From NCBI GenBank assembly GCA_046331705.1, contig JAXLQJ010000048.1:1-57109 (forward strand): a stretch of 57,109 nucleotides of DNA, given 5' to 3'. The notes beneath the pieces are model-generated. The model was not told where the DNA came from and ran no database searches. It worked only from the letters and a program-made list of their open reading frames with translations. The stretch's first letter is position 1, and every line of letters starts with the position of its first letter. The stretch is from a bacterium (GTDB lineage: Bacteria > JADJOY01). Of the stretch, positions 8,187-28,418 are shown in pieces. A program made the position numbers and the translations under genes.

Positions 8187-10832
8187 TCACGACCCGGCGG
8201 CGCCAGGGCCGGCGAGAATCCGCAGGTCCTCGGGAGTGATGCCGTAGAGCGCGAGCGAGCGCGCTTCGAGGTCCGCCTCCCAGCCCGCGCGCCGCGACAC
8301 CGCCTCGTCGATCTCGGCGTGCAGCCGGTCGAGCACCGCCAGCAAGAGCTTCGCCTCGGCCTCGGTGCGCGGCACCTGGAACATCCGCTCGATCTCGACT
8401 CCGCTGTGCCCCACCAGCCGGCGGACCTCCGTCTCGAGCAGCGCGTGGATCAGCCGCGCAACCTCCGGCGAGCGAGCGGTGAGCACCAAGTCGTCGCCGA
8501 TGCGCACCTCGTTCTCCTCGCGCACCAGCGGCCCCGCCACCTCGAGCACCGGCGGCACCCGATGGGAGAGCAGCGTTCCGGTGGCATCGCGCAACGGTAC
8601 GCGGCGCACCCACGCCTCCTGCGCCAGACGATCGATCGAGGCGAGACGTTCCATCGCCTTCTGGATCGACTGGTTCGCGCGCTCGATGCCGTCGAGCGCC
8701 GCGAGCCAGCCCGGCTGCTGTGCGCGCGGCGGCAGCCGGATCGGCACCTTCGCCAGCGCGTCGCCCAGGCGGCGTTCCGGTGGCGCGCCCTGGTGGTGCA
8801 CGTAGACGCTCGCCCAGCTCGCGTTGAGCAAGCCCACCACCAGCCGCGGATCGTCGCCCGCTCCCAGTCGCGGCACCAGCCGGACCACGGCGCCCACCGG
8901 CTCGAAACCCGTCGCGTCCCAGGCCGCGTAGAGCCGGCCTCGATCCCAGCGCACCAGGATCGCCGGCGGCTGACCATCGGCGGGCTCGGCGGCGTGCTCG
9001 GCGCTGGGCGGTACCCACCATTTGTCGGACCAGCAGATCCAGAAGCGGCCGAGGTCGCGCCCCGGTCCGATCGCCCGCCGTGCCAGCGGATCGCGCGGAA
9101 CCGTGGTGCCGAGCACCACCTCGTCCGCGGGATGTCCTTCCTCGAGCTCCGCGATCTCGCTGAGCGGACGCGCGCCCGACTGGAGCCGCTCGACGACTCC
9201 CTCCACCACGGGATCGAACCCGAAATCGGGCTTGCCGCCGCGCCCCCACAGCACGCGAGCCAGCGGTGCTGCGATCGCCTTGAACGGTCGCGCCTCGAGC
9301 TGATCGAGGCTCGTGAGCCCGCGCACCAGGTGGATCGCCGTCATGCCGTCGGCCTCTTCCGGCACGACGCCATCGCTCCGCTTGACCAACATGCGCGCGT
9401 CGGCGGGCGCGCCTGGGATGCCGGCGAGCTCGAACAGGAACGTGCCCCCCGGGGCGGCCGCGAAACGCGTGAGCAGCGCGCGCGGTGTCTCGCGCTCGCC
9501 CAGGAGCACGACCGTCGCGATTCGGCCGTGGGGGACCTCGTTCCACGCCGGGGCCTCGAACGGCGCCGGCTCGACCACCACGACGTCGCAGGCGGGTGTC
9601 TGGTCGTTGAGCAACCCGAGCGTCGACGGCGGCGCCATGCCGAGCAGCGCCGCTTCCAGGCGCAGCTCGCTCAGCACCGTGCGACCGAGGGAACGCACGT
9701 GCCATGCGCTCGGCAACCGCGCACTGCCGCGATGGGCGGCGCTCATCACCATTGACGCGGCGCCTGCGCCGGTGGCCGCGACCCAGAGCGCGTCGCGCAC
9801 GCCCTCGGGCAGGACGCGGGCGAGCGCCGGGCCCCAGAAGCCGCCCTGGGAGCCGGCCTCGCCGCGCGCGAGCTCGCGGACCTCGCCCAGGTCGAGCTCT
9901 CCGATGCGGTACGCGGCGAGCAGCCGGCGCACGGTGTCGTGCGTCGAGTCCTCGGGTAAATACCAATCGAACACGCCGCCGCCGTAGAGCGACGGATCCT
10001 GCCGTCGTAGCCGCTCCACCGAGCGCATCGCCGCCCCACCCTTGCCGTCCGGAAAGGCGGGCGCCCCCTCGCGACGATCGCGCGTCTCGAGCACCAGCGA
10101 GGTGATCATGCGAAGCGCGGCGACCCGCGCGGTCATCGCCAGGTAGAGCAGCAACCCGTTCTCGGCGGACGTCGCCCAGCGCCGGTAGCCGTCCTTCACG
10201 CGCTTGGCCGTCTCCTCCTGGCCCGCGGGCGGCGACGCGCGCTCGAGCAACGATTGCATCAGCGCACCGAAGCGCGACTTGAGCTCGAAGCTCACCAACG
10301 AGGGAACCACCAGCAGATGCCGTCCCAGCGCCGCCTTGATCTCCGGCAGCCTCGGGTCGAGCAGCTCGGGCGGCGCCTGGCCGCGCAGGCGGCACTGGAC
10401 GGACTCGTCCAGCATCGCGATCTCGCGCAACACGCTGGCGCGCGCCCGCGCCTCGTCCGGCGGCCACGCGGTCAGCCGTACCGGCGTCTTGCCGCGCATC
10501 TCCCAGACCTCGAGCTCGCGGCCGTCCGCCAGGATGCCGAGCGGCGTCTTGGCCTGGCGCATCAGGCTGTTGTGCAGCACCGGGCGGGCGTGGACCAGCC
10601 CGCTGCTCGAGCGCTTGCGGCAGCCCACGCTGATGAGCGGCTCGCCGGCGCGGTCCCGAACCAAGAGATCGGCGCCGGGATCTCCCGCCGGATGATCGAC
10701 GATCAGGTTGTCCGGGTGGCCGAGGCGATTGAGCAGCGGCACCACCACGCGATCACGCAGCTCCTCCGGCGGGATCGCCTCCTGGCAGAGGATGAGCTCG
10801 AGATCCCGAAGAAGGCTGTCCGACTCCGCCAT
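8187..10832 (-). CDS. Type IIG (Eco57I/TaqI-C-like) restriction-modification-like protein with apparently inactivated motifs
   Basis: Colinear remnants: HSDR_N-like N terminus (EELRDRVVVPLLNRLG, ADLLV...PLISVGCRK, GILADGRE), LYGGGVFDWY, DVVVVEPAPF at the NPPY position, GRDLGRFWICWS, VGLLNAS, C-terminal LYGITPEDLRIL; ATG at 10832 (alternative GTG 10895). Confidence 0.6.
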   Translation of the reverse strand: MAESDSLLRDLELILCQEAIPPEELRDRVVVPLLNRLGHPDNLIVDHPAGDPGADLLVRDRAGEPLISVGCRKRSSSGLVHARPVLHNSLMRQAKTPLGILADGRELEVWEMRGKTPVRLTAWPPDEARARASVLREIAMLDESVQCRLRGQAPPELLDPRLPEIKAALGRHLLVVPSLVSFELKSRFGALMQSLLERASPPAGQEETAKRVKDGYRRWATSAENGLLLYLAMTARVAALRMITSLVLETRDRREGAPAFPDGKGGAAMRSVERLRRQDPSLYGGGVFDWYLPEDSTHDTVRRLLAAYRIGELDLGEVRELARGEAGSQGGFWGPALARVLPEGVRDALWVAATGAGAASMVMSAAHRGSARLPSAWHVRSLGRTVLSELRLEAALLGMAPPSTLGLLNDQTPACDVVVVEPAPFEAPAWNEVPHGRIATVVLLGERETPRALLTRFAAAPGGTFLFELAGIPGAPADARMLVKRSDGVVPEEADGMTAIHLVRGLTSLDQLEARPFKAIAAPLARVLWGRGGKPDFGFDPVVEGVVERLQSGARPLSEIAELEEGHPADEVVLGTTVPRDPLARRAIGPGRDLGRFWICWSDKWWVPPSAEHAAEPADGQPPAILVRWDRGRLYAAWDATGFEPVGAVVRLVPRLGAGDDPRLVVGLLNASWASVYVHHQGAPPERRLGDALAKVPIRLPPRAQQPGWLAALDGIERANQSIQKAMERLASIDRLAQEAWVRRVPLRDATGTLLSHRVPPVLEVAGPLVREENEVRIGDDLVLTARSPEVARLIHALLETEVRRLVGHSGVEIERMFQVPRTEAEAKLLLAVLDRLHAEIDEAVSRRAGWEADLEARSLALYGITPEDLRILAGPGAAGS

Positions 10833-10925
10833 GAGGTGGCGCGATCCGAGGATTCCGTGACGAGGTGGTGAAGCGAGCGAAGCCGCGCGCGGCACACGAC
10901 GCGCTCGAATGCGCCGCTGAACGCC

Positions 10926-11014
10926 GAGCCGCGGAAGGGTACTCGAACGGTCTCCGCCGCTTCAAATGATCCGCGCCGCCTTGTGCCGCCGTGCCGGATC
11001 GCCCACCCGGCTCG
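10926..11014. repeat. 89-bp direct repeat, copy 1
   Basis: gagccgcggaagggtactcg...gcccacccggctcg; 88/89 identical to 12287..12375. Confidence 0.95.
10936..10965 (-). promoter_or_regulatory. Putative sigma70-like promoter for the RM-like gene
   Basis: Minus strand TTGAAG-N18-TACCCT, about 100 bp upstream of ATG 10832; lies inside the direct repeat. Confidence 0.4.
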
Positions 11015-11076
11015 AAGACCGGGGTGAAAGCGTCCGCTTTCGGCGTTCGGGAGGTAGAGGGCGGTCCCCAAGGGGG

Positions 11077-12281
11077 ATGCTGCCGATGCTCTACGGTCCG
11101 ACCGCGCTGGAGCGGGCGATGCGGATTCGTGAGGTGATGCTTCGAGCGATGGCGAGATCAATTGATCCAGGCGAGCGACATCCTGGGCATGGATCCACGG
11201 TCTCGCGGCCGGTGGAAGGCGCGCTTCGAGAGCCACGGTTACGACGGCTTGCTCGACCGTCGCCGAGGTCGGCTCCTCGGCCGCCGCACACCCGCGGCGG
11301 AGCTCGAGCGCGTGCCGCGGCTGTACCGGCGACACCTACACCGGCTTCAACGTCCGCCACTTTCACCAGATCGCGCAGCGAGAGCATGCGGTGACGCTTT
11401 CGTACACGACGGTGAAGACGGCGCTGCAGGCGGCTGGCCTGGCACGCCGACGGCGGTCGCGGGGCGGCACCGTCGTCGCCGCGAGCCGAAGGCCTGCCGG
11501 GCGATGCTGCACCTCGATGGCAGCCCCCACGCATGGCTGGCGCTGTGCCCCGACGAGAAGCAGACCCTGATCGCCCTGGTCGACGATGCCACCAGCGAGC
11601 TGCTCTACGGTCGGATCGAGGAAAGCGAGAGCACGGACACGGTCATGGCGGGGTTAAAGGCGGTGTTTGAGCAAGAGGGTCTGCCGATGACGCTCTATAC
11701 GGACTGCGCGAGCTGGGCGGCGATCACGCGTCGTGTCGGCGAGGCGCCCGATCCGATCCGGAGATGCGGACGCAGGTCGGCCGCGCGTTGGATCGCTTGG
11801 GGATCGAGCACATCCGGGCGCGCTTCCCAGGCGCGAGGCCGGAAGTGAACGAGTGAACCGGACGTTGCAGGACCGCCTGGTCAACGAGCTACGGGTGGCC
11901 GGGATCCGCACCGTGGTCGACGCCAACCGCTACCTCGAGGAGCGAGCCTGTCCGAGTACAACCGATTGTTTGCGCGCCCGGCTCGGGACCCCGCGTCGGC
12001 CTTCGTGGGGCTGGGGGCGTGGACCTGAATCAGGTGCTGTGTCACGAACACGAACGGGTCGTGGCAAGGACAACACCGTGGTCCTGGAGAAGGCGCGGCT
12101 GCAGATCGCCAAGCAGCGGGCGTCGCAGCTGCGAAGGGATGCGGGTCCTCGTGCGGCGGCACTTGGACGCCAGTCACACGGTGTGGCGAGCCGAGCAATG
12201 CCCTCGGACGGTTCGACCGTGACGGCAACCTCTACCCCTGTTCCGCGCACCGACCCCTCGGGGGTCGGTGAGGCCGCCTGA
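11077..12281 (+). pseudogene. Frameshifted IS1202/ISNCY-type DDE transposase
   Basis: Fragments spread over all three frames: ERAMRIREVMLRAM, GYDGLLDRRRG, YTGFNVRHFH, HRRRREPK, MLHLDGSPHAW, VDDATS, LYTD, TQVGRALDRLGIEHI, ERVNRTLQDRLVNELR. Confidence 0.88.
12248..12270. other. Perfect GC hairpin near the 3' end of the IS remnant
   Basis: caccgacccc-tcg-ggggtcggtg (10-bp stem). Confidence 0.6.
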
Positions 12282-12286
12282 GATCT

Positions 12287-12375
12287 GAGCCGCGGAAGGG
12301 TACTCGAACGGTCTCCGCCGCTTCAAATGATCCGCGCCGCCGTGTGCCGCCGTGCCGGATCGCCCACCCGGCTCG
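12287..12375. repeat. 89-bp direct repeat, copy 2
   Basis: One mismatch relative to 10926..11014. Confidence 0.95.
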
Positions 12376-12554
12376 GCGTCCGCGCGGCAGCATTGGCTCG
12401 ACCACCGGCTCGGCGGCGCGCGCCCGCGCACCACCGCGACGGGCTGCGCAGCGTCGACGGTGGCAAATCAACACGGGGACGAATCGTCAACGCGGACTGC
12501 GCGCTGCTGCCCGGAGACCGCCGAAGATCGTTCAGGAATCTCGCGCGGCGGCGT

Positions 12555-12570
12555 CGGCATTCGCATTGCT
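12555..12570 (+). promoter_or_regulatory. Putative sigma54 (-24/-12) promoter of the cytochrome operon
   Basis: CGGCATTCGCATTGCT: GG-N10-GC with GGCA and TTGCT, about 70 bp upstream of the first gene. Confidence 0.6.
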
Positions 12571-12642
12571 CAAGGTCGCCTTGGCGGAGCCCCTGCTCCG
12601 CCAAGGTGCGGGCGAATGCGCGATGCGATCGAGGTGGCGGGG

Positions 12643-13608
12643 ATGGCGGTCGGGATGACTGCTGACGCCGCGCGTGGCGCGCGTGTCCTGGAGCACCGCG
12701 GCGCGAAGCGGGCGCGTGCGGCGGGGCGCGCGCCGACCCGGCGCGGGCTCACGATCTCCTCGCTGCTGCCGCTCGGTGCCTTGGCGGCCGCCACGATCCC
12801 GGTGGCGATCGAATGCCACCTGGAGATGACCGCTCCCGAGCGCAGTGCCTACGCTTGGCTGCAACGCACCGGGTTCGTCGCCGAGGGCCCCATCGCGTAC
12901 GAGCCAGGGCACGGCTTCGGCCTGCTGCTCGGCATCGCCGGCTCGATCGCGATGGTGGTGCTCACCGGCTACTCGGTGCGCAAGCGCGTGCCTCGTCTCG
13001 CGCGGCTCGGGAAGCTGCCGCGCTGGCTGGACGTTCACGTGGCCCTCGGCCTCGCGGGGCCGATGCTGGTGCTCTTCCACACCGCCGGACGACTGGGCGG
13101 GATCATCTCGGTGGCGTTCTGGTCGATGGTGGTGGTGGTCCTGAGCGGCGTCCTGGGAAGGTACGTCTACGCGCAGGTGCCGCGCACCATCGCCGGCCGG
13201 GAGCAGAGTCTCGCCGAGCTCGACCAGGAGATCGCGGCGCTCGAGAGCGAGCTTCCCGAGCTGGCGGCGGCCCGCGCGTCGCGCGGCTGGGCCCGGCACG
13301 GCGCGCAAGCCGACGCGCGCGGCGCGCTGGCGTGGGCGGCGCGTTGGATCGACATCGGGCGCGCCGGCAGGCGCGAGCGGCGCGAGCTCGAGCGCTGGCT
13401 CGCCGAGCGCGGCCTCGATCGCGGCGAGCGCCACGCGGTGCTCGCACGCGTGCAACGCATGAACGAGGTCGAGCGGCAGGTCGTGATGCTCGAGTCCACC
13501 CGTCGCGTGGTGGCGCGCTGGCACGCGCTGCACGTGCCGCTCGTGGGCCTGCTCTACGCCATTCTCGCGATCCACGTCGCCGTGATGGTGCTGTTCCACG
13601 CGCGCTAG
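12643..13608 (+). CDS. Inner-membrane protein, ferric-reductase-like/diheme cytochrome b type
   Basis: About 5 hydrophobic helices; two H-x13-H pairs (HVALGLAGPMLVLFH, HVPLVGLLYAILAIH); YSVRKR, SGVLGRYVY; start uncertain (12643 follows GAGGT; 12655 possible). Confidence 0.75.
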   Translation: MAVGMTADAARGARVLEHRGAKRARAAGRAPTRRGLTISSLLPLGALAAATIPVAIECHLEMTAPERSAYAWLQRTGFVAEGPIAYEPGHGFGLLLGIAGSIAMVVLTGYSVRKRVPRLARLGKLPRWLDVHVALGLAGPMLVLFHTAGRLGGIISVAFWSMVVVVLSGVLGRYVYAQVPRTIAGREQSLAELDQEIAALESELPELAAARASRGWARHGAQADARGALAWAARWIDIGRAGRRERRELERWLAERGLDRGERHAVLARVQRMNEVERQVVMLESTRRVVARWHALHVPLVGLLYAILAIHVAVMVLFHAR

Positions 13609-16182
13609 ATGAGATCGAACGCCGTGCGCCAAGCCCGACTCGCGGGCGATCGTCCGCGGCCGCGAGCGCTCCCCGCCGGGACGTCCAGCGTGCCGGGCGT
13701 CGACTCGTGGGCACCGGCGCGGACGAGCGCAAGCCCGTCGCTGCGCCGGCGCGCGGCAGCGCTGGCGTGCTTCGCGATCGCGCTCGTCGTGGGCATCGCC
13801 GGCGCGGCGCCGGCCGCGCGGGCCCAGGGCCTGAGCGAGTTGGTGAGCCCAGGGCCGCTCAGCCAACCGCACCACGAGCTGGATCGCCTCGACAAATGCG
13901 GCGCCTGTCACGCGATGGGCAAAGGCGTTCCCGACGAGCGCTGCCTCGCCTGCCACGAAGCGCTCGCCAAGCGCATCGAAGCGAAGCGTGGCCTGCACGC
14001 GCGCGTCGAAGGCCGTTGCATCGACTGCCATCACGACCACAAGGGCAGCGCCTTCGACATGGTCCAGCTCGACGTGCGCCGCTTCGATCACACCCGCACC
14101 GGCTGGAACCTCGAAGGTCGCCACCAGAAGACACCCTGCGCCCGCTGCCACACCGCGAAGGTCGCGCGCGAGCTCGGCATCCGCGGCGAGACCTACCTGG
14201 GTCTCGAGACCGCGTGCACGAGCTGCCACGAAGACGTCCATCGCGGTCAGTTCGTCGACGCGAGCGGCAAGTCGCCCGCGTGCACGAGCTGCCACTCGCT
14301 CGACGGCTGGAAGCCCGCGCGCATCGACCACGACCGCACCCGCTTCCCGCTCGCGGACAAGCACGCGGGTGTCGCGTGCGCGAAATGCCATGCGAACGGC
14401 CGTTTCAAGGACACACCACTCGAATGCGCGTCCTGCCACAAGGACCCGCACAAAGGTCAGTTCAGGGACACACGCGGCGAGGCGCAAGCGTGCAGCGCCT
14501 GCCACAACGCCGCGAGCTGGAAATCGACGCGGGTCGACCACGACCGCACTCGCTTCCCGCTCACGGGCAAGCACGTCGCCGTGACCTGTGCGAAGTGCCA
14601 CGCGAACGGTCGCTTCGAAGGCACGCCGCTCGATTGCGCGAGCTGCCACGTCGATCCCCACAAGGGCCAGTTCCGCACCGCATCCGGCGCCCTCGAGGGC
14701 TGCGCCAACTGCCACGACGCCACGAGCTGGACGCGCGAGAAGATCGATCACGCGCGCACCCGCTTCCCGCTCACCGGCGGCCACGCCGACGTGGCGTGCG
14801 CCAAGTGCCACGCCCAGGGTCGCTTCAAGGACACCCCGCTCGCGTGCGCGTCGTGCCACAGCGATCCGCACCAAGGGCAGTTCAAGGACGCGCGCGGCGC
14901 GCCGCAAGCGTGCAGCTCGTGCCACGACGACCTGTCGTGGAAGACCACGCGCATCGATCACGCCACCACGCGCTTCCCGCTGGCCGGCAAGCATGCCGAG
15001 GTGGCGTGCGCCAAATGCCACGCCGAGGGCCGCTTCGCCGGCGCGCCGCTCGATTGCGCGAGCTGCCACGAGGACCGCCACCAGGGCCAGTTCCGCGAAG
15101 TGAACGGCGCGCTCACGCCGTGCTCCGCTTGCCACGGCGACAGCGGCTGGAAGCCGGCGCGCATCGATCACGCCAAGTCGCGCTTCCCGCTCACCGGCAA
15201 GCACGTCGACGTGACATGCGCCAAGTGCCACGGCGACGGCCGCTTCCGGCCGCTCGCCACCGCTTGCGTCTCCTGTCACAAGGACCCGCACCAGGGCGGG
15301 CAAGGCAACGACTGCACGACGTGCCACTCGACCTCGTCGTGGAAATCGCTGACCCAGGGCGCCCACACCGAGCGATTCCCGCTGACCGGTGTGCACGCGG
15401 CCACGCCGTGTGCCTCGTGCCACGTGAAGGCGGCGCAATTCGTCGAGCACGATCCGGCGTGGGGCGATCCGGAGAGCTGTGTCGGTTGCCACGCCGATCC
15501 GCACCGCGGTCAGTTCGACGCCACCTGCGCCGAGTGCCATTCCACGTCGGCCTGGCAGCCGATTCGTTTCCGCCACGAGAACACCGCGTTCCCGCTCGTG
15601 GGGGCCCATCGCGCCGTGGACTGCGCGAGCTGCCACGCGAGCCGCGACTACCGCGACACGCCCACCGCCTGCGTCGCCTGCCACGAGCGCGACTTCGCCG
15701 GTGCCGCCCGCTTCGACCACCGCGCGACGGCATCGATCGATTGCCAGGACTGCCATGGCGAGACCGCCTGGCTACCGGCACGCGTTCGACACGACTCGTT
15801 CCCGCTGAGCGGCGGCCACGCGGCGCCGACCTGCGAGGACTGCCACAAGACCAAGCCGTTCGGTCCGATCGACGCGAGCTGTGTCTCGTGTCACCTGGCC
15901 GATTTCACGCGCGCGCCTCGGCACGTGGCGCTCGGGCTGCCGCCTTCGCTCTGCGACCAATGCCATCGCATCACCACGTTCGCTCGCCACGAGGCGTCGC
16001 TGCCGATCGATTGCTTCACCTGCCACCGCAACGACTACCTCGGCACGCGCGATCCCAATCACGTGGCGGAGGGGATCTCCACCGACTGCGCCGAATGCCA
16101 CTCGACCGTGACCTGGGACGACGCGAGGGGCGACCGGCGCGCGCGGGTTCGAAACCGCTCCGGACACGGCGGGAAGCACTGA
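13609..16182 (+). CDS. 32-heme c-type cytochrome (c7/c3-like triheme repeats), exported
   Basis: 32 CxxCH counted; signal peptide ending ARA-Q; repeated DH..TRFPL.G.H..V.CAKCH; true start may lie downstream of 13609. Confidence 0.95.
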   Translation: MRSNAVRQARLAGDRPRPRALPAGTSSVPGVDSWAPARTSASPSLRRRAAALACFAIALVVGIAGAAPAARAQGLSELVSPGPLSQPHHELDRLDKCGACHAMGKGVPDERCLACHEALAKRIEAKRGLHARVEGRCIDCHHDHKGSAFDMVQLDVRRFDHTRTGWNLEGRHQKTPCARCHTAKVARELGIRGETYLGLETACTSCHEDVHRGQFVDASGKSPACTSCHSLDGWKPARIDHDRTRFPLADKHAGVACAKCHANGRFKDTPLECASCHKDPHKGQFRDTRGEAQACSACHNAASWKSTRVDHDRTRFPLTGKHVAVTCAKCHANGRFEGTPLDCASCHVDPHKGQFRTASGALEGCANCHDATSWTREKIDHARTRFPLTGGHADVACAKCHAQGRFKDTPLACASCHSDPHQGQFKDARGAPQACSSCHDDLSWKTTRIDHATTRFPLAGKHAEVACAKCHAEGRFAGAPLDCASCHEDRHQGQFREVNGALTPCSACHGDSGWKPARIDHAKSRFPLTGKHVDVTCAKCHGDGRFRPLATACVSCHKDPHQGGQGNDCTTCHSTSSWKSLTQGAHTERFPLTGVHAATPCASCHVKAAQFVEHDPAWGDPESCVGCHADPHRGQFDATCAECHSTSAWQPIRFRHENTAFPLVGAHRAVDCASCHASRDYRDTPTACVACHERDFAGAARFDHRATASIDCQDCHGETAWLPARVRHDSFPLSGGHAAPTCEDCHKTKPFGPIDASCVSCHLADFTRAPRHVALGLPPSLCDQCHRITTFARHEASLPIDCFTCHRNDYLGTRDPNHVAEGISTDCAECHSTVTWDDARGDRRARVRNRSGHGGKH
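14215..15264 (+). repeat. Five tandem 210-bp (70-aa, triheme) coding repeats
   Basis: CAKCH codons begin at 14377, 14587, 14797, 15007, 15217. Confidence 0.9.
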
Positions 16183-16222
16183 TCGCGAGCGCACCGTCAT
16201 GCGACGCAACGAGAGGCGAGCC

Positions 16223-17866
16223 ATGAACGACCGCAGCCACGGCGGCTTTCCCGGCACTTCCACGGCTGGCGTCGTCGCGCGACGCCGGTCCGGCAACGGC
16301 GCGCGCATCGCGCTCGCGCTGCTCGCGGCCTGGGCGATGAGCTGCTCGGGAGGCGGATCGAGCGGCTCGGGAGGCTCGGGCGGCGGCGCTCCCCCGCCGG
16401 ACGCCACCGGCGGTGTCGACCACGCGCCCTTTCTCACCGGCGCCCACGTGACGCTCGGGTGCGACGACTGCCACCACGGCAACTACCAATCGATGTCGAG
16501 CGCGTGCGAGAGCTGCCACGCGAGCGCGCGGCCGGCGGGGCATTTCGCCGGCACCTGCGCCTCCTGCCACGACACCTCCGCGTGGGCCAGCGCGGCATTC
16601 GACCACACCGGCGTCACCCAGCCCTGCGCGACCTGCCACGAGAAGGATCGGCCGGCGGGTCACGCCCCCGGCGATTGCTCGAGCTGCCACACCCCCTCGG
16701 GCTGGACGAGCGGCACCTTCGATCATGCGGGCATCACCAAGGATTGCGCTCGTTGCCACGCCGACGATCGGCCCGCCCAGCACTTCCCCGGCGACTGCTC
16801 CACCTGCCACGTCCCCGGATCCTGGACGAGCGGGCAGTTCTCGCACCAGGGCGTCACGAGCGGCTGCGCGTCTTGCCACGAGAGTCAGCGTCCGGCGGGG
16901 CATTTCCCGGGCGATTGCGCGAGCTGTCACACGCCGGGGTCGTGGGCGAATGCGACCTTCGACCATGCCGGGATCACCTCGAGCTGCGCGTCGTGCCACG
17001 AGCCCGATCGACCGGCGGGACACTCGCCCGGCGATTGCGCGAGCTGTCACACGACCACCTCCTGGACGAGCGCGAGCTTCAGTCACGACGGCATCACCTC
17101 GAACTGCGCGTCGTGCCACGAGCAGGACCGGCCGGCGGGACACTCCCCCGGCGACTGCTCGAGCTGCCACACGCCCACCTCGTGGACGAGCGCGAGCTTC
17201 AGTCACGCGGGCATCACCAGCAATTGTGCGAGCTGCCACGAGCCCGATCGGCCCGCGGGCCATTACTCCGGAGATTGCTCGAAGTGCCACACGCCCACCT
17301 CGTGGGCGAACGCCCAGTTCAGCCACGCGGGCATCACCTCGAACTGCGCGAGCTGCCACGAGGCCGATCGCCCGGCTGGCCACTACGCGGGGGATTGCTC
17401 GGGCTGCCACACGCCGAGCGGCTGGGCGAACGCCACGTTCAACCACGCCGGCATCACGTCGAACTGCGCGTCCTGTCACGAGGCGGATCGACCGGCGGGC
17501 CATTACCCCGGCGACTGCTCCAAGTGCCACACGCCCACGTCGTGGCCGAACGCGACCTTCAACCACAGCGGCATCACCACGGGCTGCGCGAGCTGCCACG
17601 CCAGCGACGCGCCGCCCAACCACTACGGCAACACCTGCGAGAGCTGCCACAACACCAACGATTGGGGCGCCGTCGCTCACGACCACACCTTCAAGATCCC
17701 GCACAACGGCTATCGGCAGTGCACGGACTGCCACACGAATTCCAGCAACTACGCGCAGTTCGATTGCATCAACTGCCACAAGCGGACCGGTGCCGAGGTC
17801 CACAAGACCAACGACAACCAGCAGTGCTTGAAGTGCCACCCGACCGGCGAAGAGGGCGACGACTGA
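16223..17866 (+). CDS. 24-heme c-type cytochrome, probable lipoprotein
   Basis: 24 CxxCH counted; hydrophobic stretch ending AWAMS-C, then a Gly/Ser linker; GAGAGG upstream of ATG 16223. Confidence 0.93.
   Translation: MNDRSHGGFPGTSTAGVVARRRSGNGARIALALLAAWAMSCSGGGSSGSGGSGGGAPPPDATGGVDHAPFLTGAHVTLGCDDCHHGNYQSMSSACESCHASARPAGHFAGTCASCHDTSAWASAAFDHTGVTQPCATCHEKDRPAGHAPGDCSSCHTPSGWTSGTFDHAGITKDCARCHADDRPAQHFPGDCSTCHVPGSWTSGQFSHQGVTSGCASCHESQRPAGHFPGDCASCHTPGSWANATFDHAGITSSCASCHEPDRPAGHSPGDCASCHTTTSWTSASFSHDGITSNCASCHEQDRPAGHSPGDCSSCHTPTSWTSASFSHAGITSNCASCHEPDRPAGHYSGDCSKCHTPTSWANAQFSHAGITSNCASCHEADRPAGHYAGDCSGCHTPSGWANATFNHAGITSNCASCHEADRPAGHYPGDCSKCHTPTSWPNATFNHSGITTGCASCHASDAPPNHYGNTCESCHNTNDWGAVAHDHTFKIPHNGYRQCTDCHTNSSNYAQFDCINCHKRTGAEVHKTNDNQQCLKCHPTGEEGDD
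16505..17704 (+). repeat. Ten tandem 120-bp (40-aa, diheme) coding repeats
   Basis: Unit CxxCH-x3-RPAGH-x2-GD-CxxCH-TPxSW-x4-FxHxGITS; unit 1 starts at 16505 and unit 10 at 17585 (exactly 9x120); last unit diverges. Confidence 0.93.
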
Positions 17867-19245
17867 TGTGCGCCCGGCCTTCGGCCGCGATTCGAGCAGC
17901 GCGGCTCGCGCTGGCGATCGGCGTCGCCGCCGTCGCGGCGCGCGCGCAGGCCGCGTCGTTTCGCGGCGTGGTCGCCGCGGAAGGCTACGGGCTCACGTAC
18001 TCGGGCGCCGAGCAGACTTCGGCGTCGTTCGGCTTCGATCTTCGGCTGGACGGCACGAGCATCACGGACCTGGACCTCGCCACCCACGTGGATGGCGAGG
18101 TTCGAATCCCCGCGGACGGCCGCGATCTCTACGATCCGGACGTGCCGTTCTATCGCGTGAGCCGGCTCTCGCTGGGGCTCGATCCCGAGCACGGCTGGGT
18201 GGCGCTCGCCGGGCGCGAGTGGATCGTCGACGTGCCCACCGCCAGCGTGGACGGCGTCACGTTCGGCTATCGCTTCCAGAACTTCCGGCTCGGAGCCTTC
18301 GCCGGCCTCGAGCCCAATCCCTACGATCAGACGATCGACCCGGACTACACGACCGGCGGAGGGTTCGTCGGCTTCGAGGGCGACACCGCGAGCGCTGCCG
18401 CGGGGCTCGCCGTGAGCCTCTTCGACGGCAACGCCGATCGCGAGTCGATCACCGGCCAAGGTCGATGGACGCCGACCCGCGAGCTGAGCACGTTCGCCTC
18501 GCTGCGCCTCGATCTCGCCGTCGCCGACCAGGCCACGCGGCTCGGCTCGCTGGCGCTGGGCGCCGACTGGCGCCCCACCGCGGCGCTGAGCCTGGCCGGG
18601 CACTTCACGAGCTATCGGTTCCTGTTGCGGCCCGAATCGCTCGCCGACGGCGAGCTCGAGCGGATCGCGAACCCCGAGCGCCAATCCATCGATGGACGCG
18701 TGCGCTATCAGCTCTCGTCGAACCTCTACACCCGCGTCCGGCTCGCGTATCGCCTGCGGCAAGCGGTGCCGAGCTACGAGGTGCGCTTGCTTCCCGACGG
18801 CGTCCCCACCGACGGCACCGCCGGCGAGGTGTACGTGGACGACCAAGGCCGCTCGTACGTGCTCGCCGCCACCACCAAGGACGAGAGCTCGTTCGGCGGA
18901 GGCCTCGCGTTCGGCGGGCGAAAGCTCGCGTCGCTGCCCGTCGGCTGGGAGGTGGCCTACACCGGCGTCACCGGGTTCGGCCGCAACGATCACGAGGGCG
19001 CACTGAGCTTCGACTTCGACCTGGCCAGCGCGGGCACGCTCTCGGTGGGTACCGGCGTGGACCTGCGCCAGCGCGACGACACTGGCTCGGACGTGGGTGG
19101 ATTCGCGCGCGCCGCGCTCTTCTGGCTGATCGATCGCGACTGGTTCGCCCTCGGCAGCTACGAGGCCACTCTCGCCGATGGCGACCTCGACCACGCCATC
19201 CTCGCGAAGGTCGGCTACCGGATTCGACCCACCTCCCCGAAGTGA
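17866..19245 (+). CDS. Outer-membrane beta-barrel (porin-like) protein
   Basis: ATG overlaps the cytochrome stop (TGATG); signal peptide AQA-A; alternating amphipathic strands (FGFDLRLDG, VDGVTFGYRF, LGADWRP, GRVRYQLS) and terminal AKVGYRI. Confidence 0.78.
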   Translation: MCARPSAAIRAARLALAIGVAAVAARAQAASFRGVVAAEGYGLTYSGAEQTSASFGFDLRLDGTSITDLDLATHVDGEVRIPADGRDLYDPDVPFYRVSRLSLGLDPEHGWVALAGREWIVDVPTASVDGVTFGYRFQNFRLGAFAGLEPNPYDQTIDPDYTTGGGFVGFEGDTASAAAGLAVSLFDGNADRESITGQGRWTPTRELSTFASLRLDLAVADQATRLGSLALGADWRPTAALSLAGHFTSYRFLLRPESLADGELERIANPERQSIDGRVRYQLSSNLYTRVRLAYRLRQAVPSYEVRLLPDGVPTDGTAGEVYVDDQGRSYVLAATTKDESSFGGGLAFGGRKLASLPVGWEVAYTGVTGFGRNDHEGALSFDFDLASAGTLSVGTGVDLRQRDDTGSDVGGFARAALFWLIDRDWFALGSYEATLADGDLDHAILAKVGYRIRPTSPK

Positions 19246-19290
19246 GCGCGCGATGCTCGCGACCCCTCACGCTCCTCGCGGGCCGGATTC

Positions 19291-20613
19291 GTGATGTCTC
19301 TCGAGACCGTCCTGTTCCTCGCTCTCGCGGCGGCGGTGATCGTTCCGTACCTGCTCGTCGTGAGCCGCCGCGAGCGTCGCGATCGCAGCGCGCTCGAGGA
19401 GGCGCGAAGCGCCGGGCACGAGCCGGCGAGCCTCCACCCGGTCATCGACCCCACGCTCTGCATCGGCACCGCCGCGTGCACCACCGCCTGCCCCGAGGGA
19501 AACGTCCTCGGCGTCATCGACGGCCGCGCGGCGCTGGTGAATCCCAGCCATTGCATCGGCCACGGCGCGTGCCTCGCGTCCTGCCCGGTGGAGGCGATCT
19601 CGCTGGTCTTCGGCACCGCCACCCGCGGCGTCGAGATCCCCCACGTGAAGCCCAACTTCGAGACCAACGTCGAGGGGCTCTACATCGCAGGCGAGCTGGG
19701 CGGCATGGGCCTGATCCGCAACGCGATGACCCAAGGGCGGCAAGCGGTGGAAGGAATCGCCCGCGAGCTCACGGCGCGGGCGAAGAGCGCGGAGCGCTCC
19801 GATCCCGCGCTCCTCGATCTCTTCATCGTCGGCGCCGGCCCCTCCGGGCTCGCCGCGGCGCTGGCGGCGAAGAACGCCGGGCTGCGCTTCGAGATCGTCG
19901 ACCAAGAGCAGGTGGGCGGGAGCGTCTACCACTACCCCCGCAAGAAGCTCGTCGTCACCTCGTCCTTCGAGATTCCCTACTACGGCTGGGTGACGGCGCG
20001 CTCGATCTCGAAGGAGGAGCTGCTCGGGATCTGGCACGAGATCATCCACGCCGCCGGGCTCACGATACACACCGACGAGCGCGTGGACTCGATCCACCGC
20101 GAGGCCGGTCAATTCGCGATCCAGACCTCGCGGCGCAACTACCGCGCACGGCGCGTGCTGCTCGCGATCGGACGGCGCGGCTCACCGCGGAAGCTCGACG
20201 TGCCTGGGGAGGAGGCGCCCCACGTCGCTTACGCGCTCGGCGATCCCGGCGACTACCGCGGCGATCGCGTGCTGGTGGTGGGCGGTGGCAACTCGGCGCT
20301 GGAAGCCGCCGCGGCCCTCGCGGACCCGGCGCTCGCCAACCGAGTCACGCTCTCCTATCGGGGCGAGACGTTCTCGCGGGTCACGGGCACCGTGCGCGCC
20401 CAATTCGACGCGCTGGTCCGGCACGGACGGATCGAGCCCCGCCTTCGTTCGCAGGTCCGCGCGATCCATCCGCGCTCCGTGGAGCTCGCGACCGACCAGC
20501 GCAGCGAGCAACTCCCCGCCGACCGCGTCTTCATCTTCGCGGGCGGCGTGCTCCCCACCGCTTTCCTGCGCGGGCTCGGCGTCCAGGTGGAAACCAAGTT
20601 CGGCAGCGCTTGA
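19291..20613 (+). CDS. Membrane-anchored ferredoxin / FAD-NAD(P)H oxidoreductase (thioredoxin-reductase-like)
   Basis: N-terminal TM; CIGTAACTTACP and CIGHGACLASCP; ETNVEGLYIAGE; IVGAGPSG; VVGGGNSA. Confidence 0.9.
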   Translation: MMSLETVLFLALAAAVIVPYLLVVSRRERRDRSALEEARSAGHEPASLHPVIDPTLCIGTAACTTACPEGNVLGVIDGRAALVNPSHCIGHGACLASCPVEAISLVFGTATRGVEIPHVKPNFETNVEGLYIAGELGGMGLIRNAMTQGRQAVEGIARELTARAKSAERSDPALLDLFIVGAGPSGLAAALAAKNAGLRFEIVDQEQVGGSVYHYPRKKLVVTSSFEIPYYGWVTARSISKEELLGIWHEIIHAAGLTIHTDERVDSIHREAGQFAIQTSRRNYRARRVLLAIGRRGSPRKLDVPGEEAPHVAYALGDPGDYRGDRVLVVGGGNSALEAAAALADPALANRVTLSYRGETFSRVTGTVRAQFDALVRHGRIEPRLRSQVRAIHPRSVELATDQRSEQLPADRVFIFAGGVLPTAFLRGLGVQVETKFGSA

Positions 20614-20799
20614 GCACCCGCGCGGGGCCCGCATCGGCGGCCTCGAGCTGGCCCAGCGCTGCGCCGGCACCTACCTACAAACCCGCGAATCGCGCGCTAT
20701 GCTCGCTGCGCGCGATCGTGCGGCCTTCCAGCCAGTTGCGGAGGCTCGCATCGGCTCCCGCGATTCAGTCTGGGCGCCCTGGCACTCGTTCGATCTTCC

Positions 20800-23700
20800 A
20801 TGCCTCAGCCTCGCGCAATTCACCTATCGACGGCTGTTTCCGTCGCCGGCTCACAGCTGTCGCTGGTCGCAGGCCGCATCCGCGAAGCCCTGAGCGAGCT
20901 CGGCGGTGCGGAGCACATCAGCTGCTGGAGCGACGACGCGATCGTTCCCCAGCTCGAGCCGTTGGCGTCTGTGATCGACATCGATGTGCGGATCGTCCCG
21001 CCGCCGGCTCGCGCCCGGAAGTCCGAGCTCGTCCACCCGCAATCCGCGAGCGGACTTCTATTCGTGTGGGACGGGAGCGTGATCGAACGGGCCGGCTCAG
21101 TCACGTCGGCGCTCTCCCGGCTCGGCATTCCTTACCGGATCGTTCGACCATTCCGATACGACGCATTCATCTCGTATCGTCACGACTTCGCCGACATCCA
21201 GTTTGCGTCGCGATTGCAGCGCATGCTCGAACGGCGACTCCTGCCGTCCGCGTATCGCCGAGGCGGGTGGAAGCACCTCACGGTCTTCCGCGACGACACC
21301 GACCTCGTCGCAGCGACGGATCTCCCCGCTGCGCTCCGCGTCCGTCTGGAAGAAAGCCGGCGATTGATCGTCGTCTGTTCGCCGTCGGTGACGGCGTCCC
21401 GGTGGGTACCGGCCGAGGTGGAGCACTTCGCCGCGTCCCGCGGCGCAGCGAACATCAGCTATCTGCTCGTCGGCCCGGACGCGACTGCGGCCAACAGCGC
21501 GCTCGCCGCGCTGGCCGTGTCGGGCACCGAGCCGCTGGGCATCGATTTCGTCACCGCCGCGCGGAGCGTCACTCGCTGGCAACCAGCGACCCAGACTGCC
21601 ACGCGGGCGAAGGCCCGACTGCTGTCGCATTTCGTCGATCTCGATTACGCAACGCTCGCGCGCCGGGAACGCCTTCGCATCGCCCTAGCGATCCTGCCGA
21701 TTTTCGTCGTGATCGCCGCGATGGTGGAATCGTATGTGTCGTATCGAAATCGACCGCTAGCCTTGCCGTCCGCACGTGCGCTTCCGGAGCACGCTGCGGT
21801 CCAGCGAGTAGAGGCGACTCCACAACAACCCTATCCATCCGACCTAGCAATCGAACTGCCAGGTTATGTGATCGCCAGCGCCGGCACGCGCGCCGTCACG
21901 GCGCACCGCAATCGACTCGCGGTCTGGGATCGGGGCCGCAAGGTCCAGGAACATGACCAGCACGGCCAGATCGTCTACGGCCTCGACATCGAGCCCGGCG
22001 GGCGCTTCATCGTTTCCGCGGCCGAGGACGGCGCCGTACTGGTGACGGACACGCTCATCAATGCGACTGTCGCCAGTTTCCCACACGACCTGCAGGAAGT
22101 GTTCTATCGCGCGTCGTTCTGCCCTGACGACAGAGACACCGTGGTCGTCGCCGGTTGTCACGGAATCGATGCCGCACGCTCCGCGGCGCTCGGGAAGTCA
22201 CCCTCCTCCGAAGGCCTCGGTCTCGCCGTCGCCGAATGGAACTGGCGACTGGGACTGGCACGAGCCGCGACAGTAATCCCTGCCGACGCGGCGGCCGTCG
22301 ACGCCCTCAGTGCACGCTGTCGGGGCACGCAAGCCATGAACGACGTGCTGGATTTGCGATGCGACCCTCGAAACATCGAGGTGCTGTTCGGATCTCAACG
22401 GTTCACAGTGCCGCGCGGCGGGGCCGCCATGCCCGTCGCGGTGCCGCTCGTGCGCATCCCAGACGAAGACGAGCACTCGATCCGCATGGGCCGAGACGGA
22501 ATCGCGGTAGCCTCCGGGAGCCACATTGAGGTGCAATCAGGCTCGGAGACGCCTCGATGGCGCGATGATCTGGCCGCGAACCTCCGGGTGGTCGCTCTCG
22601 ATTCCGACGCGGCGGGTCGCAATCTCTTTGCGGCATTCGACACCGGCGATCCGAACCAACCGGGCGCCATTCGCCACTATCGATTCGAGGAGGCGAGGAA
22701 CGCGCGGCTGTGCAATGTCGCCGCGATCGGAGGTCCGCTTTCCCTGGACTACGACGAACGCTCCGGCACCGTGGCTGTCGGCGCCGGCGAGCGCAGTGCG
22801 CTCGCGTACGACTTCCGCAACTGCCACACCGATCCAGGCGATCCTGCCTGGGTGGCCCCGCGCGCGACGATGGACATGCTCTACGCGGCCGCCGTGGCTG
22901 CCGATGGCACACGGCTCGCGGTCGGCGGAGTCGACGGAAGCCTCTGGCTCTTCGATCTCGATGCGCTTGAGTTGCTTCAGCGCATCTCGAGTCGCCAGAC
23001 GTCAGCACGCTTCGGAGATCGTCGGATCGTCGCGCTCGACTTCAGCCAGCGAGCAGAGCGCGTCGCGGCCGTCAGCCAAGCCGACCGCAAGATCCGCGTG
23101 TGGGATCTGACGCGGGGGATCCCACCTCAGTCGTGGGCTTTCGACGGCGTTCGAGGCGCCGCCTCGGGGCGTCGCACCTACCGACGTCTCGGCAACCTCG
23201 ATGTTGCGATCAGTCCGGACGGATCGATCGTGGCGGCGGGGGACGACCTCGGCTGCGTGCACGTGTGCCAGATCGAAAGTGGCGCATGTCGCAGCATGGC
23301 GGCGTCGGGAAAGTTCGCAGGCCAGGTGTCGTGCGACGAGATGTTGGCTGAAGTACCCGAAGGAAGCGATCTGATCGCCGGCGTTGGCTTCCTCGATGAT
23401 CACCATCTCGTGACCTCAGGACACGACGGTCGCTTCCGTCGCTGGCGCGTGACCCACGACGTCGGTAAGCAGTTGACGGCCGAGCTCGAATCGTCGAGCC
23501 GATCGCTGACGGATGACGAGCCCGCCCGCGTCGGCTCGACGCCTGCTTCATCGATGCTGGGTGAGCTCAGCGTGTGGCGAGCGCAAGGGGAAGACGCGAT
23601 GGTCGCCACGTCGCGGTCGAACGGCGACGTGCTCGTGTGGGCGGGCAAAGGCGAACCGACTCGAGTCGGAGTCGCTGGCGAGGTTTCGGGATCGGTCGGC

Positions 23701-24944: not shown

Positions 24945-25140
24945 CGACCGCGAGACCCGTTGCGCCGGACGCGAAGGATCGCGTCGCCATCTCCGTCAGC
25001 CGCGAGCCCGCGCGCCGTCGCGGCCCGCGCGTTCATTCGGCGAACACCGCGTGTTCGCGATGCGAACGATCGCCGCGGAGCGCGGTCGATGGAACTGGGG
25101 TTTTCCGCGTCGATTCGCACGTTCGAGCTCCTGCCCACCC

Positions 25141-25156
25141 TGGCATTGGCCTTGCG
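25141..25156 (+). promoter_or_regulatory. Putative sigma54 promoter of the patatin gene
   Basis: TGGCATTGGCCTTGCG, GG-N10-GC, about 100 bp upstream of GTG 25254. Confidence 0.6.
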
Positions 25157-26291: not shown

Positions 26292-26326
26292 GCGACCGCG
26301 CGCGGCGGGCGTGACCGCGCGCCAGC

Positions 26327-28400: not shown

Positions 28401-28418
28401 GCTCCCTCGAAGGACGGG

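Follow-up and report, generated by a model that had tools for sequence, protein, structure and literature searches.

Do the cytochrome, porin and flavoprotein genes of this bacterial locus encode a route by which electrons could pass between cytoplasmic NAD(P)H and the cell surface, bypassing the quinone pool? The DNA analysed (the window, 57,109 nucleotides) carries five tightly packed, co-oriented genes, A-B-C-D-E, at 12655-20613 (+):

A, 12655..13608, + strand: inner-membrane protein, putative di-heme cytochrome b, 317 aa
B, 13609..16182, + strand: exported multiheme cytochrome c, 32 CxxCH, 857 aa
C, 16199..17866, + strand: multiheme cytochrome c, 24 CxxCH, 555 aa, lipobox-like AMSC
D, 17866..19245, + strand: predicted outer-membrane beta-barrel with signal peptide, 459 aa
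E, 19291..20613, + strand: membrane-anchored cytoplasmic Fe-S/FAD/NAD(P)H oxidoreductase, 440 aa

The translations confirmed the original prediction of five co-oriented open reading frames with two abutting or overlapping junctions. The TAG of A ends at 13608 and the ATG of B starts at 13609, and a single A is common to the TGA of C (17864-17866) and the ATG of D (17866). The intergenic gaps are 16 nt (B-C) and 45 nt (D-E). Gene A had been started at 12555, where we found no in-frame start codon; the candidates are 12616, 12643 and 12655, and a 317-aa database gene call fits 12655. Both flanks are unrelated to the set (upstream, an HTH ORF and a 902-aa unknown; downstream, a TIR-WD40 protein). 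We consider it probable that the five genes form a single electron conduit across the envelope, which is fed by cytoplasmic NAD(P)H, not by the quinone pool, and runs outward in a NOX-like manner.

The AF2 model of A (pLDDT 80.5) has five transmembrane (TM) helices, and a cytoplasmic helical hairpin lies at about residues 186-251. TM3 carries W124-x3-H128-x13-H142 (317-aa numbering), TM4 carries S164-G-x-x-G168 (SGxxG) and TM5 carries W289-x3-H293-x13-H307. Two H-x13-H pairs had been claimed for this protein, and all four histidines were invariant in alignments of 21 and 32 sequences. W124, S164, G165, G168 and W289 were invariant or nearly so in the family alignments. In NOX/FRE proteins, two helices supply the His pairs that bind the b hemes, each pair with a spacing of 13 residues. 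The His motifs make A a putative di-heme cytochrome b. Membership of the ferric reductase/NOX transmembrane domain family (PF01794) was considered and rejected: A of the window gave no match, and E is not FNR-like. Among 32 A-family members, weak matches were obtained to DUF4405 (23/32, best E 8.9e-6), Ni_hydr_CYTB (7/32) and Ferric_reduct (2/32). A of the window scored 15 bits against DUF4405 (PF14358; E 0.036), below the gathering cutoff of 26.7 bits, which suggests a remote relative of this family and not a member. Heme b binding has been demonstrated for one DUF4405 protein, according to the available part of PMC11334425. The structural matches of A (CybB, Z 8.4; designed 4D2, Z 7.7; FdnI, Z 6.9) were within noise for helical bundles.

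The motifs of A equal those given for the inner-membrane protein of the predicted porin-cytochrome clusters PCC3 and PCC4 in the available text of He et al. 2017 (PMC5566968). As far as that text goes, PCC3 comprises four-gene clusters, found in Fe(II)-oxidising and other Proteobacteria, that are predicted to feed the quinone pool. PCC3 combines a porin with two multiheme cytochromes (MHCs), both very rich in hemes: one is periplasmic, and the other carries Ser/Thr/Gly/Ala-rich repeats. The fourth component, in the inner membrane, is ~300 aa long and has five TM helices, with SGxxG in TM4 and a W-x3-H-x13-H motif in each of TM3 and TM5. The window has the inner-membrane motifs (in a protein of 317 aa), the outer-membrane barrel gene and heme-dense MHCs (32 in 857 aa, 24 in 555 aa). 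The proposed resemblance to PCC3 was thus upheld, and this predicted type, as far as it is described there, was the only match for the five-gene set, which corresponded to no characterised complex. Gene order and carrier taxa differ, the likeness being judged by the published description and motifs; of the at least 576 loci that encode A, the best 80 included none with a Betaproteobacteria label. The available PCC3 descriptions (PMC5566968, PMC8788666) do not mention a flavoprotein, whereas the fifth gene, E, is conserved in the window type. In PCC4 subgroup II, the inner-membrane protein shares the His motifs of A and is preceded by or fused to a Fer4_11 Fe-S protein (PMC5566968, available text), an arrangement that we also observed in L011, L143, L145, L149-L152, L157, L165, P0039 and P0040. 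PCC4 has no extracellular MHC and, in that text, no described NAD(P)H flavoprotein, whereas the window has E and no cNMP-polyferredoxin.

Under the hypothesis published for the PCC3/PCC4 inner-membrane proteins (PMC5566968, available text), A would be a cytochrome b that reacts with quinol/quinone and connects the cytochromes with the quinone pool, and E would be accessory or unrelated, e.g. in redox repair or regulation. The structural neighbours of A do include the quinone-reactive FdnI and cytochrome b6, at Z scores within noise. Shorter A relatives with the same His motifs adjoin 8-10-heme cytochromes, and 6/14 of their loci have no cytoplasmic partner nearby, so the A fold may also work with another donor. 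For the window we regard a quinone-linked A as unlikely, and the evidence against it comes from E.

E begins with a hydrophobic TM helix and continues with an Fe-S domain (C57-x5-C63-x3-C67-P and C88-x2-H91-x2-C94-x3-C98-P), an FAD site (GAGPSG) and an NAD(P)H site (GGGNSA ... SYR). Pfam cutoffs were reached for Pyr_redox_3 (PF13738; 154.3 bits, cutoff 30) and Fer4_10 (44.3 bits, cutoff 25.5). G181, G183, G186, G331-G333, C57, C63, C67, C88, H91, C94 and C98 were invariant, and both dinucleotide motifs (G181-x-G183-P184-x-G186, and G331-G332-G333-x-S335-A336 with R357) were invariant or nearly so. E therefore combines a two-dinucleotide-binding flavoprotein fold with a ferredoxin domain, and the anchored Fe-S/FAD oxidoreductase was recovered as expected, with a Fer4 dicluster domain. 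The cluster types are uncertain, because the first Fe-S motif has just three Cys (28/32 sequences) and the second uses a His. E was rejected as a YpdA (171.5 bits, equivalog cutoff 339.9; TIGR01292/TIGR04018 test) and as a TrxR (78.7 bits, cutoff 343); its only six cysteines all lie within the Fe-S domain, and it has no redox-active CxxC.

A and E might also export electrons with E acting as a ferredoxin-linked or other flavin-dependent module that is not fed by NAD(P)H. The nucleotide preference of E is a prediction from its sequence, and many distant A relatives are paired or fused with cNMP-binding polyferredoxins that lack a flavin domain, partners that hint at a ferredoxin-level or regulated donor. 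We consider such a donor quite improbable for E, given the conservation of both dinucleotide motifs and the nearest solved relatives. In a profile search of the PDB, these were the NADPH-dependent YpdA/Bdr (7a7b, 1.4e-49), followed by TrxR-like ferredoxin-NADP reductases.

We searched 185,579 species genomes, found at least 576 loci encoding A and kept the best 80, calling E orthologues at E <= 1e-50. Among these best 80, an E orthologue was present in 62/80 loci, and in 41/43 of those with at least 8 kb downstream and at least 2 kb upstream of A. In 41 loci no more than 200 nt separated E from A, and A, E, D and at least two MHCs (each with at least 10 hemes) occurred together in 42/80. In the two long loci without E (L022 and L075), a membrane-anchored FAD_binding_6 + NAD_binding_1 + Fer2 protein stands directly upstream of A. 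E is here displaced by a non-homologous, FNR-type NAD(P)H/2Fe-2S protein, which argues both for an NAD(P)H-type donor and against an accessory E. The second sample comprised 29 loci from 27 of 43 matching genomes (401 genomes searched). An E-family gene (E < 1e-100) was found in 20/29 of these loci; other loci had a ferredoxin + Pyr_redox_2 pair or a cNMP-polyferredoxin adjacent or fused to A, and L146 had A and a 16-heme cytochrome only.

E and A also occur as single-ORF fusions (L147, 753 aa; L142), and one Atlas cluster, whose 56 members are 805-aa Fer4 + Pyr_redox proteins, matched residues 15-317 of the A structure (TM-score 0.70). An A match was found in 27/28 genomes with full-length E (E at <= 1e-120), a co-occurrence that speaks, like the fusions, against a quinone-linked A with an unrelated E. 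One genome had an E-like match (3.8e-92) without A, and in G344 A and E were on separate contigs. The expected conservation of the flavoprotein beside homologous cytochromes was thus seen in the long-flank loci, in the second sample and as fusions in two genomes. Judged from these gene neighbourhoods, E is a core part of the cluster.

The predicted complex of A with E, a check proposed with the original prediction, passed with scores of 0.68, 0.68 and 0.67, compared to 0.01 for the best of three controls. The pass mark is reached by 116/157 solved complexes and 2/215 mismatched pairs, counts that hold roughly here because custom alignments and two riding hemes were used in the A-E runs. Between runs, at least 80% of contacts agreed, and partner pLDDT was at least 74. 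Sequence comparison gave no PDB relative of A (best E 0.89), which makes it unlikely that the pass reflects a memorised structure. In the model, the TM helix of E (5-24) packs against TM4/TM5 of A. The Fe-S domain of E (54-65, 77-79, 96-101) sits on the cytoplasmic face of A (110-125, 168-180, 283-292), and the contacting A residues flank H128 and H293. The predicted interface thereby places the Fe-S domain above the heme site on the cytoplasmic side of A, which further weighs against the quinone-pool hypothesis. Because E is fused to A, displaced by an analogue and docked on A, a merely accessory role would not be expected.

B and C contain exactly 32 and 24 CxxCH motifs, in agreement with the 56 c-hemes counted earlier, and a motif search found no CxxxCH or Cx4CH in either. 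They are the most heme-rich ORFs of the 8.17 Mb genome (next ORF, 14). B has a signal-like N-terminus, RRRAAALACFAIALVVGIAGAAPAARA, and Pfam matches to Cytochrome_C7, Cytochrom_c3_2, Cytochrom_CIII and MtrC-MtrF_II-IV; it putatively spans the periplasm. In nearly all related loci, a B-type MHC comes after A or E. The signal sequence of C ends in a lipobox-like AMSC and is followed by a Gly/Ser linker and about 11 tandem paired-CxxCH modules (Paired_CXXCH_1, 100.6 bits). The claim of a 24-heme surface lipoprotein held in part: AMSC is present in C, but by a crude regex a lipobox on the second cytochrome occurs in only 3/60 related loci and is unconserved outside the window's genus. We infer the cell locations of B and C from signal peptide and lipobox, and C is a putative surface cytochrome.

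The AF2 model of D (26 sequences; pLDDT 72, pTM 0.69) is all-beta with about 22-24 strands. All 50 matches listed by Foldseek (E down to 5e-8) and all 50 listed by VIA were outer-membrane barrels or porin-derived designs, the VIA matches including OccK7 (Z 18.6, 277 aligned) and the SusC-like BT1762 (Z 18.1, 393 aligned). D-family HMM matches sit after the second MHC (54 ORF matches among 82 loci). These models support the assignment of 17866..19245 as a beta-barrel, and D is a predicted outer-membrane protein.

In the conduit that we favour, the N-terminal helix would tether E to the cytoplasmic side of the membrane. NADPH or NADH would be oxidised at its TrxR/YpdA-like FAD domain, and electrons would move to two Fe-S clusters. 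The Fe-S domain would dock on the cytoplasmic face of A near the cytoplasmic-side heme b (H128, H293), electrons would pass through the membrane to the heme b on its outer side (H142, H307), and they would continue to the 32-heme periplasmic B, through barrel D and to the 24-heme C at the surface. The conservation of A with E, the fusions and the complex model support this path, which had been proposed from NAD(P)H through FAD, Fe-S and heme b to the cytochromes and porin. In function, A and E would resemble a split NADPH oxidase/ferric reductase, built of non-homologous parts and joined to a PCC3-like porin-cytochrome complex.

NOX/FRE proteins and the split bacterial MsrQ-Fre pass electrons from NAD(P)H via flavin and two stacked b hemes to an acceptor outside the cytoplasm. 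The logic here is the same, and fused and split forms occur in both. The dehydrogenase of the window type is instead TrxR/YpdA-like with an Fe-S domain, not FNR-like (L022 and L075 excepted), and its domain comes first in E-A fusions. A is no Pfam Ferric_reduct member, and in place of O2 or a periplasmic enzyme, the acceptor would be a porin-cytochrome wire of 56 hemes. The plan of the set, with an MHC in the periplasm, a barrel in the outer membrane and a lipoprotein MHC at the surface, is shared by MtrCAB of Shewanella and Pcc (OmaB/OmbB/OmcB) of Geobacter. MtrCAB and Pcc differ in being fed by quinol dehydrogenases (CymA, ImcH, CbcL) and in having 8-12 hemes per protein, and B (68.3 bits) and C (38.2 bits) were far below the cutoff of the MtrA/DmsE decaheme family (TIGR03508, 192.2 bits). 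In Tmc/Hmc of Desulfovibrio, too, a single transmembrane path is formed by a multiheme cytochrome in the periplasm, a cytochrome b in the membrane and an Fe-S protein in the cytoplasm. Their Fe-S subunit is HdrD-like (CCG), electrons flow inward to sulfate reduction, and both an NAD(P)H flavoprotein and an outer-membrane part are absent.

The original prediction allowed flow in either direction; the outward half is favoured and the inward half is not. Net outward flow is most likely, because it is downhill and helped by the membrane potential; acceptors might be Fe(III)/Mn(IV) minerals, humics, electrodes or O2. The conduit would pump no protons and so would be a means to regenerate NAD(P)+, dispose of electrons or acquire metals reductively, not a form of classical respiration. 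The lack of an obvious energy gain from outward flow without proton pumping counts against the conduit.

Inward, electrons from Fe(II), cathodes, Fe(0) or a reduced partner cell would enter through C, D, B and A, and E would reduce NAD(P)+ for biosynthesis. Multiheme wires and flavoproteins are reversible in principle. NAD(P)+ has a reduction potential of about -320 mV, and its reduction would be uphill from Fe(II)-type donors in a module without visible energy coupling; electron entry into a negative-inside cell would probably cost extra energy. The cultured carriers among the best 80 of at least 576 loci were Maribacter, Arenibacter, Yeosuana, Luteirhabdus and Rubrivirga, which we take to be aerobic heterotrophs, not lithotrophs. 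PCC3 was first found in Fe(II) oxidisers (PMC5566968, available text), but the PCC3 genes of Sideroxydans ES-1 were downregulated on Fe(II), according to the available part of PMC8788666. We judge an inward wire highly improbable. The same gene set in many bacterial phyla points to a widespread, predicted quinone-free electron export. The carriers were labelled Bacteroidota, Gemmatimonadota, Rhodothermales, Ignavibacteriota, Acidobacteriota and 'Deltaproteobacteria bacterium'.

We identified five co-oriented ORFs within 12.3-20.6 kb of the window (window G+C, 70%), and the ORF calls and translations bear out their predicted adjacency. The genes are as follows:

12655-13608, + strand: A, inner-membrane protein (possible starts 12616, 12643 and 12655; the 317-aa database gene call matches 12655)
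13609-16182, + strand: B, cytochrome with exactly 32 CxxCH motifs
16199-17866, + strand: C, cytochrome with exactly 24 CxxCH motifs
17866-19245, + strand: D, predicted outer-membrane barrel
19291-20613, + strand: E, Fe-S/flavin protein

The original prediction placed the start of the first gene at 12555, where there is no in-frame start codon. Its heme-motif counts agree with ours, and so do its two tight junctions: the A stop abuts the B start, and the C TGA and D ATG share one base. The two remaining intergenic spacings measure 16 and 45 nt. No other ORF in the 8.17 Mb genome carries as many heme motifs as B or C, and A, D and E each occur in it once. A scan of 10800-21200 for sigma-70 promoters and terminators returned no sites, and is uninformative at a GC content of 70%. 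DNA of the gene cluster is present in activated-sludge and wastewater sequencing runs of 12 studies.

We assessed the domain content of E. An N-terminal hydrophobic helix with an Arg/Glu run is followed by a ferredoxin-like domain and a Pyr_redox_3 flavin domain in which both dinucleotide motifs are kept. The nearest profile was YpdA/Bdr (1.4e-49), along with TrxR-type ferredoxin-NADP reductases. A function as disulfide reductase was ruled out because all six Cys of E lie within the Fe-S domain. The two Fe-S motifs (within residues 57-99) are unusual and non-canonical across 32 sequences: the first has three Cys and lacks the second Cys in 28 of them, and in the other an invariant His replaces the second Cys (C-x2-H-x2-C-x3-C-P).

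To define related loci, we scanned 185,579 species genomes with a pattern built on a narrow 8-sequence alignment, the 21-sequence alignment being too diverse. This gave at least 576 loci with A relatives, and the best 80 were kept. These 80 of at least 576 were labelled Bacteroidota (45), Gemmatimonadota (14), Rhodothermales/Balneolales (7), Ignavibacteriota (4), Acidobacteriota (4), 'Deltaproteobacteria bacterium' (1) and 'Alteromonas' (1); 4 were unlabelled. Among them, an E orthologue occurred in 62/80 (whole genes, E 1e-93 to 1e-136) and the full gene set in 42/80. The other 18 had no whole E at E <= 1e-50: 15 stop near A at a contig end, L047 holds a 197-aa E fragment, and two (L022 and L075) are long-flanked. 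Where at least 8 kb downstream and at least 2 kb upstream of A were available, 41/43 of the best 80 loci encoded E, which upholds the prediction that the flavoprotein is kept beside homologous cytochromes. In this same set, E lay no more than 200 nt from A in 41 loci, mainly Bacteroidota (order A-E-B-C-D), and 3' of the barrel in 21, as in the window (order A-B-C-D-E). Chance adjacency of five unrelated genes was ruled out by this conservation of the gene set. A second sample (29 loci from 27 of 43 matching genomes, 401 genomes searched) contained an E-family gene in 20/29. Three further loci had a small 2x[4Fe-4S] ferredoxin and a Pyr_redox_2 flavoprotein, others had cNMP-polyferredoxins beside or fused to the membrane protein, one was cut by a contig end, and one held A and a 16-heme cytochrome only. 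E is thus a conserved core component of the cluster.

Displacement, fusion and co-occurrence gave three further lines linking E to A. L022 and L075 (Acidobacteriota labels), the only long-flanked loci without E, carry another reductase directly upstream of A, membrane-anchored and with FAD_binding_6, NAD_binding_1 and 2Fe-2S domains. Judged by its domains, it appears to be a non-homologous replacement of E, with a different fold and the same chemistry. L147 (753 aa) and L142 encode the E domain and then the A domain in a single ORF, and an Atlas cluster of 805-aa Fer4 and Pyr_redox proteins (56 members) matches the A structure over residues 15-317. The fusion also sets the topology: because the cytoplasmic C-terminus of E runs into helix 1 of A, H128/H293 lie on the cytoplasmic side and H142/H307 on the outer side. 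A was present in 27/28 genomes having E at <= 1e-120, the exception being a 750-contig relative; one weaker E-like match (3.8e-92) fell in a genome without A.

Several loci showed additional neighbors. In 19 loci the opposite strand encodes a ResB+CcsA fusion protein for cytochrome c biogenesis, in 18 a ~265-aa protein without assignment lies directly 3' of the barrel, and in 18 a TPR protein separates A from the first cytochrome; such loci include L026 and L037 among the Bacteroidota, and L017 and L024 among the Gemmatimonadota/Rhodothermales. Some Saprospiraceae-labelled loci, L043 and L069 among them, have an additional copy of E, encoded on the opposite strand, and L038, listed with these, has two barrel paralogues. 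At L140 (G387:C42), A and E are adjacent and the next gene encodes not a multiheme cytochrome but a 660-aa NarI-like + Fer4 + CCG (HdrD-like) protein, 2.6 kb beyond which the contig ends.

The two predicted H-x13-H pairs of A (H128/H142 and H293/H307) proved invariant or nearly so in alignments of 21 and 32 homologues, within W124-x3-H128-x13-H142 and W289-x3-H293-x13-H307, as did S164-G-x-x-G168. The A model (pLDDT 80.5) shows five TM helices plus a helical hairpin on the cytoplasmic side. The available text of He et al. (2017; PMC5566968) describes a five-helix inner-membrane protein in the predicted porin-cytochrome clusters PCC3 and PCC4, with helix 4 carrying SGxxG and helices 3 and 5 each carrying W-x3-H-x13-H, and proposes that it holds two b hemes and contacts the quinone pool. 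These motifs mark A as a putative PCC3/PCC4-type inner-membrane protein. Weak matches to di-heme b families were found among 32 A-family members (DUF4405, 23/32; Ni_hydr_CYTB, 7/32; Ferric_reduct, 2/32), the window A itself falling under threshold; heme b binding has been demonstrated for a DUF4405 protein, according to the available text of that study (PMC11334425). Foldseek of the A model against the PDB returned nothing at E <= 0.001. A VIA-wide comparison matched CybB (Z 8.4), 4D2 (Z 7.7), a b6f chain (Z 7.4), FdnI (Z 6.9) and Dcytb (Z 6.5), standing among ABC-transporter and complex I helices; we did not count these di-heme bundles as support because they are within noise for helical proteins. 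The A family is modest in size yet widespread, with 4478, 2756 and 980 cluster representatives among 1.84 billion at E <= 1e-3, 1e-10 and 1e-30, and matches in 43/401 sampled genomes. Smaller two-gene units also exist (L153, L154, L155, L158, L160 and L161), in which an 8-10-heme cytochrome is paired with a membrane protein of 180-250 aa that bears two W-x3-H-x13-H motifs (in L155, L158 and L160, one of the two was found). Near these six, neither a barrel nor a reductase was detected.

We then considered a predicted complex in which A and E, each with a 32-row alignment, were combined with two hemes. The A-E complex scored 0.68, 0.68 and 0.67, and the best of three controls scored 0.01. The calibration mark for this score was reached by 116/157 solved complexes vs 2/215 mismatched pairs, counts that are only rough here because custom alignments were supplied and a ligand was included. 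The runs shared at least 80% of contacts, with a partner pLDDT of at least 74. In the model, the TM helix of E packs on helices 4 and 5 of A, and the Fe-S domain (including C57, C63, C98 and P99) contacts A residues 110-125, 168-180 and 283-292, the cytoplasmic ends of the His-bearing helices. Sequence comparison gave A no relative in the PDB, so the predictor is unlikely to have reproduced a memorised structure. The predicted complex supports A-E binding, short of proof.

B and C are c3/c7/MtrC-like multiheme cytochromes (Pfam, NCBIfam), and both score far under the MtrA/DmsE cutoff. B begins with a Sec-type leader; in C, a lipobox-like AMSC precedes a Gly/Ser linker. A lipobox was found in 3/60 second cytochromes of related loci by a crude regex, with ORF starts uncertain. 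D had no Pfam match. Its AlphaFold2 model (26 homologues) is a signal helix and then all-beta (pLDDT 72, pTM 0.69), and every match listed by Foldseek or VIA is an outer-membrane barrel or a design derived from a porin, in line with the predicted beta-barrel. Among the matches listed, the longest alignments were to 22-strand barrels (SusC-like BT1762, Z 18.1, 393 residues aligned), and TonB-dependent receptors reached Z 15-17. MtrB was not among the best 50 matches listed, which is no evidence of differing folds.

Compared by described features, the window cluster has every PCC3 feature examined. In the available text of He et al. (PMC5566968), PCC3 is predicted only and comprises four genes with no flavoprotein mentioned; PCC4 subgroup II has an Fe-S gene beside or fused to the membrane-protein gene, which, as far as that text goes, is consistent with the wider partner pattern found here. 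The openly available full texts covered describe neither a flavoprotein or NAD(P)H module in PCC3-type clusters nor the cluster in Bacteroidota or Gemmatimonadota; PMC5566968 Tables S3-S6 may list neighbors.

In the proposed path, electrons would pass from NAD(P)H to the FAD of E and its two Fe-S clusters, then to the inner and outer heme b of A, and on to 32-heme B, barrel D and 24-heme C. A putatively His-ligated cluster of E may be the exit site onto heme b. Outward flow, which is downhill and assisted by the membrane potential, is the best reading; inward NAD(P)+ reduction from Fe(II)-type donors would be uphill, and no coupling device is visible. Lacking proton pumping, the conduit presumably has less in common with classical respiration than with NADPH oxidase, ferric reductase or the electron export by which fermenters regenerate NAD+. 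A may also be linked to quinones, and shorter A relatives adjoin decaheme cytochromes without a cytoplasmic partner in 6/14 loci.

Our tentative proposal, to which we give somewhat under an even chance, is that extracellular electron transfer includes a widespread class so far unrecognised, in which an NAD(P)H-to-surface wire works like NOX and independently of quinones. Its carriers would mostly be aerobic or facultative heterotrophs, its role would be other than respiration, and the His-ligated E cluster would be the exit. The wire may combine an Fe-S flavoprotein with a di-heme b protein, a barrel and giant multiheme cytochromes. Carriers may occupy oxic, particle-rich habitats (marine Flavobacteriaceae, Saprospiraceae, Gemmatimonadota, Rhodothermales and the activated-sludge bacterium of the window), and may use the wire to acquire metals by reducing humics or particulate Fe(III)/Mn(IV), to shed excess reductant, or to produce extracellular superoxide. 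Carriers among the best 80 of at least 576 loci include cultured marine isolates, which we take to be aerobic heterotrophs, so the idea is open to direct genetics and biochemistry. The cultured carriers in this set are Maribacter sp. PR1, Arenibacter echinorum DSM 23522, Yeosuana marina JLT21, Luteirhabdus pelagi A3-108 and Rubrivirga sp. IMCC45206.

The quinone pool supplies the electrons in known porin-cytochrome conduits, and the connection of PCC3/PCC4 to metabolism has so far been guesswork. If the proposal is true, extracellular electron transfer would here be wired on a different principle, through a conserved module dedicated to NAD(P)H that is in some cases fused to the membrane cytochrome and in others swapped for an analogue. 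The cluster would then be the bacterial equivalent of the NADPH oxidases and ferric reductases of eukaryotes, extended over two membranes, and possibly a compact part set for coupling cytoplasmic NAD(P)H to electrodes.

The flanks are unrelated to the cluster. Upstream are a 902-aa ORF without Pfam match or other assignment (8187-10895, - strand) and a 228-aa ORF with a transposase-like helix-turn-helix, HTH_29/HTH_32 (11162-11848, + strand). Directly 3' of E (20800-24138, + strand) is the gene for a 1112-aa protein that has TIR_2 at its N-terminus and also contains WD40 repeats; this protein may serve defence or signalling unconnected to the cluster. Neutral-lipid genes occupy 24267-37704 (HlyIII, patatin, wax-ester synthase/DGAT, AMP-binding enzyme, acyltransferase, beta-lactamase-fold protein and two GDSL lipases). 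At 40533-42086 (- strand), beside a GH18 chitinase-like gene, is the gene for a 517-aa protein in which RoxA-like and cytochrome c domains are combined. Three other contigs of the same genome (C19, C22 and C8 of G000) carry further multiheme cytochrome clusters with 10-14 CxxCH per ORF.
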